Shown: positions 2,709-5,526 of the stretch, piece after piece
Layout: the number at the start of each line of letters is the position of its first letter
How positions within the stretch are numbered: position 1 is the first letter of the stretch
IMG/VR virus record: IMGVR_UViG_3300045988_004234
Location: 1-5,526 of that record
Source: a virus
Length of the DNA: 5,526 nucleotides
Reading direction: 5' to 3' (one strand)
Made by a program: the position numbers and the translations under genes
Notes under the pieces: model-generated
Databases searched by the model: none
Told to the model about the DNA's origin: nothing
What the model saw: only the letters and a program-made list of their open reading frames with translations

Positions 2709-2733
2709 TAATTTGAAGAATTTTGTCTTGAAG

Positions 2734-2773
2734 GTCATGCGCTAGGCGCGGTGCGCCGTGCGAAGAGCATGAC
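2734..2773. other. GC-rich nested hairpin
   Basis: Outer stem GTCATGC (2734-2740) pairs with GCATGAC (2767-2773). Inner stem GGCGC (2745-2749) pairs with GCGCC (2753-2757) across a 3-nt loop. It forms a GC island in AT-rich surroundings. Confidence 0.6.
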
Positions 2774-2811
2774 GTAACTTTTCGGTTTCGCTCGTCGGAC
2801 TGCCTTTATTT

Positions 2812-2990
2812 GAGTTTTCAACACTTTCAACACTTTCAACAGGTTTTCCACAAAATGTTGCACAAAGACTTTTGTGCATATTGCTACACTTTCAACAATT
2901 CAACAAGTTTTCAACAAAGTTTTCAACAATGAGATTTGCTTATTTTTTACGTTGTTGCGTTACAAATTTATACTTTTCAACTTTTCAACA
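2812..2990 (+). repeat. Iteron array: 7 perfect and 2 one-mismatch copies of TTTCAACA, all in one orientation, in three clusters
   Basis: Perfect copies start at 2816, 2825, 2834 (9-bp tandem TTTCAACAC), 2890, 2909, 2921 (12-bp tandem AGTTTTCAACAA x2) and 2983. One-mismatch copies start at 2898 (ATTCAACA) and 2975 (TTTCAACT, part of the 8-bp tandem CTTTTCAA x2). Confidence 0.9.
2859..2878. other. Perfect 8-bp palindrome/hairpin between iteron clusters
   Basis: TGCACAAA (2859-2866), loop GACT, TTTGTGCA (2871-2878). Confidence 0.7.
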
Positions 2991-2994
2991 GCCC

Positions 2995-3016
2995 CTACTA
3001 CTACTACTACAACAAG
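2995..3016. repeat. Trinucleotide microsatellite (CTA)5 followed by (CAA)2
   Basis: ctactactactacta caacaa g read directly, immediately right of the last iteron. Confidence 0.9.
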
Positions 3017-3044
3017 TTATATATAATAGATTATGTTTGTAAAT

Positions 3045-3084
3045 ACACGTGCGTGCGTGCGCGTTTCGCGCGTGCGTGCGCGTG
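3045..3084. repeat. Two alternating purine-pyrimidine GC-rich tracts (Z-DNA-prone) forming an imperfect hairpin; contains a duplicated 14-mer
   Basis: 3045-3063 (acacgtgcgtgcgtgcgcg) and 3067-3084 (cgcgcgtgcgtgcgcgtg) alternate Pu/Py without a break and flank a TTT. GCGTGCGTGCGCGT occurs at 3051-3064 and 3070-3083. Folding 3046-3063 onto 3067-3084 gives 13 Watson-Crick plus 5 G-T pairs on the plus strand. Confidence 0.85.
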
Positions 3085-3107
3085 AGCGTAATTTAGCTTA
3101 TGATTTG

Positions 3108-3134
3108 CCTCGTACCTCGGTAGCCCCTACGAGG
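3108..3134. other. Hairpin, 7-bp stem
   Basis: CCTCGTA (3108-3114) pairs with TACGAGG (3128-3134) across a 13-nt loop. A competing CCCC (3124-3127) / GGGG (3133-3136) pairing is possible. Confidence 0.5.
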
Positions 3135-3145
3135 GGCGTATACGA

Positions 3146-3187
3146 AAGGGGTCTCCCGTGGCGACAGGAGACCCCTTCTTGTTTTTA
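3146..3187. terminator. Intrinsic-terminator-like hairpin, potentially bidirectional (the better U-tract is on the plus strand)
   Basis: Perfect 11-bp stem AAGGGGTCTCC (3146-3156) / GGAGACCCCTT (3167-3177) with a 10-nt loop. The plus strand continues CTTGTTTTTA. The minus strand continues only TCGTATACG, giving TTT when the last stem bases are counted. Confidence 0.6.
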
Positions 3188-3228
3188 TGATGCTCTTAAT
3201 TAGCCGTGGATAGCTGTGAAACTTGGGT

Positions 3229-3265
3229 GTGGGCCTAATCCTTATCTTGATAGGATTAGGCCCAC
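3229..3265. other. Perfect 14-bp hairpin with 9-nt loop, 5 nt downstream of the Rep stop codon
   Basis: GTGGGCCTAATCCT (3229-3242) pairs with AGGATTAGGCCCAC (3252-3265). The loop is TATCTTGAT. No U-tract follows on either strand, so it is not a canonical terminator. Confidence 0.85.
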
Positions 3266-3270
3266 TGACA

Positions 3271-4293
3271 CTATAACAGCCCTCTGGCTGTTCTAAACTT
3301 TTGCTGTTTTGTTGCTTCTTCCACCTTTGCCTCTTGTTCGATGGTTAGCCCTGTATTGCTCATTTTGAGCTTTAGCGCGTTGATTGCGCTTGATTGCCTT
3401 TTGCGTTTCGTTTCCCATAGGTCTTCCGGATGCTCACTTTCGTACTTTTTATCAAAGTACCTCGGTATCGGCCTTTTTTTGCCGTTAAAGTATAGTCCAT
3501 CATCTGCGTACATCTTCTCTTTGTGGCTCGTGTAGTAGTCGTAGCCTAAACCCGGATTCCTCGACATACAACAATAAGGCGGCGTTAAGCCTAGCTCCCT
3601 ATATCTTTTGTTGTCGTTTCCATATGTCTTTTTGGTGACGTATCCTGCCACATAAGCCATCGTTTCCGGTGACGCTTCTGCAATGATGACATTACCCATG
3701 CCCCAGATTTTGTCTATCTCTTCGCTTTCGAAGTACGGATTATCACCCCTTTTTTTCTTGAGGTCTGGAATTTCCAAACCATAATAAATGCCGTGGTGAT
3801 GCGGTCTGCCCGTGTTTTCGCCGTATTCGCCACAATAAAAATATCTTAGGTCTAAGCCCCATTTATCGGACGTTTCTTGCTTTTTGCGCAGTCTCTTGTT
3901 AAAGCGCACCATGTCTTCTTGTAGCAGTATTTGTACCACTTCCGGCGCGTCTCCGGTTGTCCACTGGTGTGTTGCACCTCTTATGATTTCGCCGGTTGCT
4001 CTTACCATGCCCGGCACGTACTCTTGATTCCAGGTCAGAGTTAAAAACCATACCGGTGACAGTGTTTTTGACTCCATCAGCATTCTTGTCTCCCAGTCTT
4101 GTCGCTGTCTGAGTCTGCATCCTAGACATTTGCCACATGGCAGTAACATCACGTCTGTCCTGTACGCGATACTCTCATACGTTGCTGTTGGATTGTGCGC
4201 TCTTTCGCGGTACGTCTCTAGGGTCATGATTGACCCTGTTATGTTATGGTCGTTTGGGTTGTATACCCTTATGAGTGGTCTTGCACAACTCAT
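3271..4293 (-). CDS. VP4: Replication initiation protein VP4 (HUH rolling-circle endonuclease, phiX174 A-like)
   Basis: The 340-aa track ORF carries CGKCLGC near the N-terminus, FLTLTW (motif 1), [11 protein letters not shown] (HUH motif) and [11 protein letters not shown] (Y-x-x-x-Y double-tyrosine catalytic motif). AGGAGG lies 9 nt upstream. There is an ATGA overlap with the VP2 stop. Confidence 0.93.
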
Positions 4294-4928
4294 TTAAAAC
4301 TGCCTCCTCTGCTCCCGCCGAAGCCGTCTTTATCTCTCTTGCCACTTGTTGCGGTTTGTTTGCCGCTGTTGTTGTTTTGGTTTAACCACTGACTTAAATC
4401 CGGAAAGTCCGTTTGATAGCTGTTGTAACCGCTGCTGTGTTGCTCTCCGTGCGAGTCTGTCCAAGACCAGCTTTCGGCTTTGGTCTTGCTGTAGTTTGCT
4501 ACTGTGCCGGAGATTGTCGGCATACTAGCTGATTGTGTCCCCACACTTGGCGCGCTTATAGAGCTTTGCCCGATTGAGCCTTGTGCCCCGCTCGGTGTGC
4601 TTGCGCCGCCCTGCTGATAGGCGAGTATAGGATTAAGCCCCGCTGCTTTCATGTCTGCCATAGCCCTTTGATAGCTCGTGTTACTCATGCGTTCCTGCCA
4701 TGCCCTGTTTGCGGCCGCCTCTGCTGAGTTGTAAGACATTGCTGCATCCTGCTGGATGCGATTATAAACGCCCTGCTGGATAGCTCCCAGAGTGTTTAAG
4801 CCCAGAGCCAAGAGGCTGTTCTTATCGTTTTGCTGACTCTGCATTCCCTGCGCTTGCTGGCTTTGCCCAAGAAAGTATTTTGCAAGCTCTTGCGTTTGTC
4901 CCATATTGACACCGCTTTCGCCGGTCAT
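4290..4928 (-). CDS. VP2: DNA pilot / minor capsid protein VP2 (phiX174 H-like)
   Basis: The 212-aa track ORF carries the conserved core [32 protein letters not shown] and a low-complexity Q/G/S-rich remainder. Neither ATG 4928 nor ATG 4904 has a recognisable SD, so the true start is uncertain (see findings). Confidence 0.85.
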
Positions 4929-4958
4929 TGTTGACCCGCTTGCGCCTGGGCTTGTCTG

Positions 4959-5093
4959 TTATCCGCTTGAGCTTGTTGCTCCGCTGCCGGATGTGCCTTT
5001 GAGTGCGTTGAATATGCCTGTTCCGGCGTTTATGAGTGTGCTCACGCCGCCCAGTAATTTTGCGCCTGTTGCTAACGCTGCTAAAATTGACAT
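4959..5093 (-). CDS. 44-aa Gly/Ala-rich hydrophobic mini-ORF, in frame with VP2 across a TAA; candidate pilot-protein N-terminal transmembrane module
   Basis: Hand-translated codon by codon: MSILAALATGAKLLGGVSTLINAGTGIFNALKGTSGSGATSSSG, stop TAA 4961-4959. It resembles the glycine-zipper N-terminal TM segment of phiX174 H and many VP2 proteins. It fills the VP1-VP2 gap. Confidence 0.55.
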   Translation of the reverse strand: MSILAALATGAKLLGGVSTLINAGTGIFNALKGTSGSGATSSSG

Positions 5094-5096
5094 ATA

Positions 5097-5123
5097 CTAA
5101 AACAGCCGGGTTTTGCCCCGGCT
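5097..5123 (-). terminator. Hairpin plus short T-tract just after the capsid stop (attenuating terminator and/or translational structure)
   Basis: The minus strand reads AGCCGGG-GCAAAA-CCCGGCT (5123-5104) followed by GTTTTAG. The stem is 7 bp and GC-rich, and the hairpin starts 11 nt after the capsid TAA. Confidence 0.5.
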
Positions 5124-5133
5124 TCCTCCTTTC

Positions 5134-5526
5134 TTAGTGATGGTCGATGAGTCCCGGAATACTGTAGACCGGCATGCATCGCGTTGTTTTGTTCATGAAA
5201 TAAAAGTCTGCAATGAAGTCCGGCTGAGACTGTACTGCAAGAGTCCGCTTCATCTCGGCTTCGCCCTGTTCCATCCAATCGGTGCTCAGAGTAGGCAGTG
5301 CGTTGTAGTCCTGTGCATAGTGCCATGCGTCGAGACTCTGTTGTGCGTTGCTTCGGAACAGGCCGGTAACTTTGCTCGGCTTATACCGATAGTCGGCCCA
5401 TGCTTCCTGGTAGCCGAATGCTTCATTGTCCTTTGCGTTGCCCTGTGCATAGATTTCCTTATTGAGAATAGCTTGCTCGCCGATGTTTGCCAGTACCGGC
5501 CAGTAGTAGTCATATCGTCCGGTGCG
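5134..5526 (-). CDS. VP1: Major capsid protein VP1, C-terminal part (5448-5526 duplicates 1-79)
   Basis: The same frame crosses the junction through a split codon G|CA (base 1 plus 5447-5446). It reads ...AQGNAKDNEAFGYQEAWADYRYKPSKVTGLFRSNAQQSLDAWHYAQDYNALPTLSTDWMEQGEAEMKRTLAVQSQPDFIADFYFMNKTTRCMPVYSIPGLIDHH and stops at TAA 5136-5134. The joined CDS (1327..1 plus 5447..5134) is 1,641 nt, 546 aa. Confidence 0.93.
   Translation of the reverse strand, partial: RTGRYDYYWPVLANIGEQAILNKEIYAQGNAKDNEAFGYQEAWADYRYKPSKVTGLFRSNAQQSLDAWHYAQDYNALPTLSTDWMEQGEAEMKRTLAVQSQPDFIADFYFMNKTTRCMPVYSIPGLIDHH
5448..5526. repeat. Terminal direct repeat, copy 2 (duplicate of 1-79)
   Basis: Exact 79-nt identity with the window start by direct comparison. 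Confidence 0.95.

Follow-up and report, generated by a model that had tools for sequence, protein, structure and literature searches.

The minus strand between positions 5093 and 4290 of the window, by which the whole 5526-nt stretch of DNA analysed here is meant, raises the question of whether the pilot protein VP2 of this virus is encoded in two pieces separated by a single in-frame TAA, or whether one ordinary gene has been interrupted. The second reading is very probably correct: the region is best read as a single gokushovirus VP2 gene in which a private, very recent C-to-A change, or else a base-call or assembly error, turns the TAC codon of Tyr45 into TAA, and not as an evolved split.

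In order to place the locus, the gene content of the window was compared with that of related viruses. A 79-nt terminal direct repeat indicated that the contig is circular, its unique sequence amounting to 5447 nt. The window represents the genome of a gut gokushovirus with all of its genes on the minus strand (Table 1). Megablast matches were gut gokushoviruses from the faeces of pigs, dogs, and humans, with 81-85% identity across 83-93% of the window, and the nearest genomes had approximately 92% nucleotide identity. The gene order of gut Gokushovirinae has been described as VP4-VP5-VP3-VP1-VP2 (PMC3394797), and the position of VP2 in the window, directly after VP1 and before VP4, follows this order in the gene map, in the annotated relatives, and in that description. 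Exact-sequence look-ups returned no identical record for the 212-aa VP2, its 204-aa alternative start, the 44-aa mini-ORF, or VP4. Furthermore, no close prophage was found among 185,579 species genomes scanned; the best match of that scan was 57% identical over part of the protein and lay on a contig of 5.8 kb from a Prevotella MAG bin.

Table 1. Position of genes and local features in the window, with VP2 sites numbered by codon from ATG 5093.
Feature	Position	Strand	Description
VP1 (major capsid)	wraps across window ends; TAA stop 5136-5134	-	GTG start after AGGAGG
AGGAGG Shine-Dalgarno (SD)	5125..5130	-	31 nt upstream of ATG 5093; conserved in most relatives
Hairpin AGCCGGG-GCAAAA-CCCGGCT	5104..5123	-	7 bp, GC-rich, terminator-like; between SD and ATG 5093; followed by U-run 5103-5094
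VP2 (DNA pilot / minor capsid)	5093-4290	-	267 sense-codon positions (codon 45 is TAA) plus TGA stop
Codons 1-44 (mini-ORF)	4962..5093	-	hydrophobic glycine-zipper-like VP2 N-terminus (residues 1-31) and start of S/G/T-rich linker
In-frame TAA, codon 45	4959..4961	-	private C-to-A at third codon base (G-to-T at plus-strand position 4959)
Codon 49, CCA (Pro)	4947..4949	-	also private, CAA to CCA (Q49P; T-to-G at plus-strand position 4948), 11 nt past the change in codon 45
Ten linker codons, TAA to Met55	4929..4958	-	normally part of VP2; relatives read YQTSQGASGST in one continuous frame
Met55 ATG	4926..4928	-	conserved internal VP2 methionine
ATGA overlap	4290..4293	-	VP4 start ATG 4293-4291 over VP2 stop TGA 4292-4290
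VP4/Rep	4293-3271	-	Pfam REP_ORF2-G2P
Non-coding region, then small ORFs	after VP4/Rep		non-coding region of 630 nt
J-like ORF	2154-2035	-	39 aa
ORF5/VP5	2035-1793	-	Pfam Phage_ORF5
VP3	1815-1324	-	Pfam Chlamy_scaf

The reading frame itself is simple. ATG 5093 opens a minus-strand ORF of 44 codons (5093-4959; product MSILAALATGAKLLGGVSTLINAGTGIFNALKGTSGSGATSSSG) with TAA 4961-4959 as its terminator, ten in-frame codons (4958-4929) follow, and ATG 4928 opens a 212-aa ORF that ends at TGA 4292-4290; the sequence at the TAA site is GGATAACAGACAAGCCC. The first-pass annotation had placed the ORF, the stop, and the ten-codon gap exactly to the base, and reading the frame directly bears out its statement that one in-frame TAA separates an N-terminal module from the rest of VP2. 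Its description of the mini-ORF as the hydrophobic N-terminal module of VP2 is likewise upheld. The 19-residue window starting at residue 3 had a Kyte-Doolittle value of 1.69, the peak of the whole protein, and the mean for residues 1-31 was 1.27; this segment is the sole hydrophobic stretch of VP2 and contains small-xxx-small spacings. An N-terminal transmembrane-like segment is listed as characteristic of VP2-like proteins (PMC3394797), and one is predicted in the window VP2 by Kyte-Doolittle hydropathy only.

Family comparisons joined the two pieces. With the TAA read as Tyr, residues 2-267 of the fused protein matched positions 2-285 of the 287 in PHROG 8742 (E 2.4e-90), a profile labelled 'pilot protein for DNA ejection', and the mini-ORF alone matched positions 2-43 of the same profile. 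Relatives were gathered from 80 IMG/VR loci with the fused protein, nine ENA/Logan contigs, and seven further GenBank records. For the count at codon 45, loci were retained where VP2 was at least 70% identical and covered the site, giving 69 loci with 62 distinct VP2 sequences (GenBank, IMG/VR, ENA, Logan). Codon 45 was TAC (Tyr) in 69/69, and an in-frame stop anywhere in VP2 was found in none of them. The uninterrupted VP2 frame that the window lacks at TAA 4961-4959 was thus present in every one of these loci, and the alignment proposed in the first-pass annotation showed homologues to be contiguous across this point in all 69. The opposite outcome considered there, a conserved separate mini-ORF, was seen in none of the 69: a separately terminated N-terminal ORF was not found in any frame, and the segment was fused to VP2 throughout. 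A DNA pattern with N at both private sites had no match in IMG/VR and matched one further contig in a metagenome collection, which has TAC as well.

The relatives encode a contiguous VP2 of 267-271 aa in the same place between VP1 and VP4, and those that are annotated carry a single VP2 of 816 nt beginning 38-45 nt past VP1. Since the mini-ORF and the downstream piece align end to end with the contiguous protein in every relative, the two-piece arrangement in the window is not a chance juxtaposition. Tyr45 is invariant within a linker that otherwise varies (SSSGYQTSQ, SADSYNRAH, AANSYNQAH, and others), and position 55 is Met in nearly all relatives. Taken together, the sequence comparison indicates that the window carries a disrupted copy of a Gokushovirinae VP2 family member.

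The real start of VP2 is ATG 5093. From the VP1 stop to this start the sequence reads TAA-GAAAGGAGGA-AGCCGGGGCAAAACCCGGCT-GTTTTAGTAT-ATG and includes a hairpin with an RNA fold of -19.8 kcal/mol (z -3.0), which was also picked up by a terminator scan. The hairpin was kept across 42 distinct intergenic sequences, in which two layouts of the SD were observed. The SD stands before the hairpin in most relatives, the window included, while in seven (L088, L033, L038, L028, L034, L045, and L039) AAAGGAGA follows the hairpin at normal spacing to the ATG. In 16 diverse relatives the stem does not vary, so covariation provided no evidence for or against the hairpin. The true start is easily overlooked because its SD lies 31 nt upstream, beyond the conserved hairpin, and this layout may be the reason gene callers miss it.

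ATG 4928 is the conserved internal Met55 and not the start of VP2. The first-pass annotation had reported that this ATG has no SD. A weak match is indeed what was measured (-5.2 kcal/mol to the anti-SD, compared to -11.4 to -12.1 kcal/mol for VP1, VP4, ORF5, and the J-like gene), although the argument built upon it is moot because the codon is internal. The protein search also yielded several clusters (173-231 aa) whose sequences begin at Met55, Met84, or Met95, and some of these clusters hold dozens of member sequences on full-length contigs. That such short entries represent recurrent splits of VP2 was considered and rejected: the contigs of P0077, P0080, and P0086, when read, showed an open frame running on contiguously upstream, and the short length of these three entries is therefore a start-codon choice of the gene caller. 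In L085, L086, and L090-L095 the open upstream frame encodes a normal N-terminus with TAC at codon 45. The start of L087 adjoins an unrelated junction, as does P0074 in its contig. For this clade, a number of public VP2 entries with a length of 208-231 aa, beginning at Met55 or later, are start miscalls of an intact gene of approximately 267 aa.

The age of the lesion was approached through selection on VP2, and its reality through private changes. The window VP2 had a dN/dS of 0.07-0.095 against its nearest relatives (dS approximately 0.33-0.54), comparable to the 0.07-0.09 observed among the intact relatives themselves. Compared to the closest relatives, codons 1-44 carried 0-2 amino acid differences, and codons 45-54 only Y45* and Q49P. 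Neither half of VP2 has decayed, and the TAA is therefore extremely recent, if it is real at all. Among sites that do not vary across 20 relatives, 10 changes in VP1, VP2, VP3, and VP4 were private to the window, those in VP2 being Y45* and Q49P only. The same leave-one-out count gave 2-61 private changes for the relatives, and the window was the only one with a private stop. Seven of the ten altered the protein compared to 44% in the pooled relatives, a difference that was not significant (one-sided p 0.09). Eight of the ten fell into four tight pairs (VP1 codons 45/55 and 132/134, VP2 codons 45/49, and VP4 codons 332/335); four adjacent pairs lay within 30 nt where 0.69 were expected (p ~0.002), and similar clustering was observed in the relatives L009 and L033. 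A test for phasing-type error, in which the new base equals that of a neighbour, was not significant (6/10 versus 46%, p 0.29).

Absence of premature stops was used by Kirchberger and Ochman as a sign of intact gokushovirus genomes (PMC7062461). All other genes in the window are intact, which together with the typical private load argues mildly against a generally error-ridden assembly, while the clustering of private changes lends mild support to errors at the read level or to multi-base events; the two indications conflict. The closest VP2 relative, L088 (Pilon-polished and long-read-looking by contig name), has VP1 split in two ORFs and a shortened VP4 with no stop in VP2, an example of how genes of this clade are broken by errors. 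The odds are about even between a real ochre mutation that makes the genome defective and a consensus base-call or assembly error. An unsampled sub-lineage may also carry the TAA stably.

VP2 is contiguous and has TAC at codon 45 in 69/69 relatives, which leaves no place for programmed read-through, for a separate gene encoding a membrane peptide, or for a two-piece pilot as a conserved feature. Among the four explanations put forward in the first-pass annotation, a recent nonsense mutation or defective genome is retained on this evidence, and read-through, a two-piece pilot, and an independent peptide are set aside; the assembly error that it also named survives beside the nonsense mutation, the TAA being private and found in 0/69 relatives. 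Tolerated or programmed read-through of the UAA, by a near-cognate tRNA-Tyr or in an ochre-suppressing host, would have to yield enough 267-aa VP2 for a viable genome, and is judged very unlikely. Its appeal is that the stop is in frame with a fully intact frame downstream and that a near-cognate or ochre-suppressor tRNA-Tyr at UAA would restore the wild-type residue. Few copies of the pilot may also suffice, as phiX174 H is present at about a dozen per virion (PMC3394797). The stop occurs in 0/69 relatives, however, hence nothing about it is conserved or programmed, and TAA ends three other genes of the window at their normal ends. The window encodes no suppressor (a tRNA scan found no tRNA genes in it) and had no Rfam family matches. 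UAA, moreover, is normally the most efficient bacterial stop. A functional two-piece pilot, in which a 44-aa membrane peptide acts with a soluble 212-aa part produced by termination and re-initiation at Met55 30 nt further on, would draw on the conservation and proximity of that codon, on its frequent choice by gene callers in relatives, and on the HGEGGS sub-clade, where GAAGGCGG just upstream of Met55 looks SD-like by eye. The split is present in none of the 69 relatives, the SD match before Met55 in the window is weak at -5.2 kcal/mol, and the residue lost, Tyr45, is invariant. Furthermore, N-terminally deleted phiX174 H proteins reportedly inhibit infection, as the title of a 2009 study by Ruboyianes et al. 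(listed among the references of PMC3394797) has it, and by analogy an N-terminal deletion of this pilot would probably be harmful; a working two-piece pilot is accordingly a highly improbable reading.

An independent gene for a small membrane protein, acting in lysis or entry and preceding a shorter VP2, is scarcely credible, even though the peptide is hydrophobic, is approximately the size of a single-gene lysis peptide, and opens with an ATG of its own behind an SD. Its homology lies with the first 43 positions of the VP2 family profile, and in 69/69 relatives it forms part of VP2, with no separately terminated copy in any frame. Reassignment of TAA to a sense codon in the host has a vanishingly small chance of being correct. 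Nothing speaks for an alternative code beyond the in-frame stop itself. VP1, the J-like ORF, and orf58 all terminate at TAA where their counterparts in the relatives end, and codon 45 in the relatives is TAC rather than TAA. The remaining genes stop at TGA or TAG, and the standard genetic code applies. Global reassignment had already been considered unlikely in the first-pass annotation on the ground that TAA ends the J-like protein and the capsid (VP1, 5136-5134); both ends are seen in the window, and orf58 adds a third.

The preferred reading, a single VP2 gene with a private lesion at codon 45, allows the consequences of a real TAA to be outlined. Translation would start at ATG 5093, with the intergenic hairpin bringing the AGGAGG close, and would halt after 44 residues, freeing a hydrophobic N-terminal fragment. 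The remaining 222 codons would then be translated only if a near-cognate tRNA occasionally read through the stop, restoring Tyr, or if ribosomes weakly re-initiated at Met55, 30 nt further on; re-initiation would give a pilot protein that lacks the membrane segment. Such a genome would presumably need VP2 in trans from a co-infecting wild-type phage, or an ochre-suppressing host. That the TAA is both real and stably carried, whether as a circulating gut ochre mutant sustained by tRNA-Tyr read-through or a suppressor host, by a working two-piece pilot through re-initiation, or by long-term complementation, is considered very unlikely. The main value of the locus is one of quality control: a single VP2 at 5093-4290 should be annotated and flagged as disrupted at codon 45, and annotation as a short VP2 with a new small ORF is not warranted. 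If the TAA were the majority allele in the reads, the window would represent a natural conditional-lethal pilot mutant and offer a handle on complementation and suppression in gut microviruses.

Comparison with known systems is consistent with this reading. The window VP2 resembles other Gokushovirinae VP2 proteins (MG945135, MG945157, KT264798, and KT264799) in its placement between VP1 and VP4, a length of 267-271 aa, a hydrophobic N-terminus, an S/G/T linker, and a conserved core; its amino-acid identity to the nearest database proteins is 84-98%, and it differs from the family by TAA for TAC at codon 45 and the private Q49P, and by nothing else. The N-terminally truncated public entries (e.g. 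P0074 and P0082, 'MAG TPA: minor capsid protein', 208-231 aa) share the Met55 of the 212-aa ORF, but only the window has a real stop in the frame. VP2 is taken to fulfil the role that H has in phiX174 (PMC11980548, PMC3394797). No Pfam family reached E 0.01 for VP2, searching PDB sequences with a profile returned no relevant relative, and an AlphaFold2 model of the contiguous homologue P0002 (35-sequence alignment) had a mean pLDDT of 35.9, with unreliable helices drawn at 64-77, 89-104, and 123-150. By these searches VP2 appears to have no detectable sequence link to phiX174 H, and the functional analogy comes from the literature only. Conditional-lethal nonsense (amber and ochre) mutants of the phiX174 pilot gene H belong to classical phage genetics. 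They share with the window a single-base change from sense to stop in the pilot gene and the expected dependence on a suppressor host or on complementation, whereas the change described here is known from a metagenome-type assembly alone. The lesion is of an already known kind, a classical nonsense mutation in a pilot gene.

Ten sites that are invariant in 20 relatives across VP1, VP2, VP3 and VP4 carry substitutions private to the window, and eight of these ten fall in four tight pairs, with members 6-30 nt apart. The number of adjacent pairs (4 observed versus 0.69 expected, p ~0.002) indicates clustering, and one pair includes the in-frame TAA of VP2. Comparable clustering of private substitutions was found in two related loci, L009 and L033. 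Errors at the read level, mutation events that change several bases at once or the import of short patches could each account for the clustered pairs. Gene breakage through sequencing error in this clade is illustrated by the closest VP2 relative of the window (98% amino acid identity), contig L088 (ENA ERZ1694257, 6283 nt), which comes from a Pilon-polished, apparently long-read-derived assembly. Its VP1 is in two pieces (194 and 352 aa) and its VP4 is cut to 270 aa, while its VP2 lacks its stop and extends to 278 aa. With regard to the assembly of the window itself, an exact 79-nt direct repeat is present at the termini and shows that the contig is a complete circle, with 5447 nt of genome; an overlap of this length hints at short reads assembled with a k-mer size of 79.

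Coordinates of features in and around the structural genes of the window (SD, Shine-Dalgarno sequence)
Feature	Position	Strand	Basis
Private-substitution pairs	VP1 codons 45/55 and 132/134; VP2 codons 45/49; VP4 codons 332/335
VP1-VP2 intergenic stretch with SD and hairpin	5094-5136	minus	comparison with relatives L001-L089
Several candidate hairpins, perfect or near-perfect	3090-3265, directly 3' of VP4 stop	minus	sequence read by eye
GTTGAAA repeats	2816-2989	minus
Terminal direct repeat	1-79 = 5448-5526		exact match

Nucleotide conservation across 4930-5136, which comprises the VP1-VP2 intergenic stretch and the first ~54 VP2 codons, was far above that of 4290-4929. Synonymous codon differences to relatives numbered 0-4 in VP2 codons 1-44 versus 33-56 in codons 55-267. 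This conservation could mark a recombination block or, alternatively, the nucleotide sequence as such may be under constraint. The true VP2 start, ATG 5093, has its SD 31 nt upstream; a GC hairpin of 7 bp, which is conserved, and a U-run lie in between. Unlike in the window, the SD lies 3' of the hairpin at normal spacing to the ATG in seven of the relatives compared. The hairpin could bring the distant SD near the VP2 ATG, forming a 'split' ribosome-binding site, and together with the U-run it could double as a terminator after VP1.

Many public VP2 entries of the clade are 173-231 aa long and begin at an internal methionine, Met55, Met84 or Met95 (proteins P0074, P0077, P0080-P0086 and P0088-P0090; loci L085, L086 and L090-L095), and some carry the name 'minor capsid protein'. 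The frame upstream of these short entries is open and encodes a normal N-terminus. These entries are systematic start-codon miscalls, and the membrane segment is lost from them. In a further relative, L120 (GenBank MG945391.1), the VP2-like feature is just 630 nt and the VP4-like feature 1230 nt, lengths that suggest an altered VP2/VP4 junction or a different 3' end.

Directly downstream of the VP4 stop, the candidate hairpins read by eye were GTGGGCCTAATCCT...AGGATTAGGCCCAC, GGGGTCTCC...GGAGACCCC and GCCCCTCGTAGGGGC, with a (CGCA/CGCG)-rich tract, also seen by eye, 3' of them. The non-coding stretch that separates VP4 from the small ORFs (2712-3085) contains eight GTTGAAA repeats, compared to 0.9 expected, a count reached in 0 of 200 shuffles. 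Within the window, matches to more distant gokushoviruses are confined to this region (78-90% identity, megablast matches H12-H20), where the matched stretch carries no annotation. With its repeats, the region could represent a module, iteron-like or regulatory, common to several lineages.
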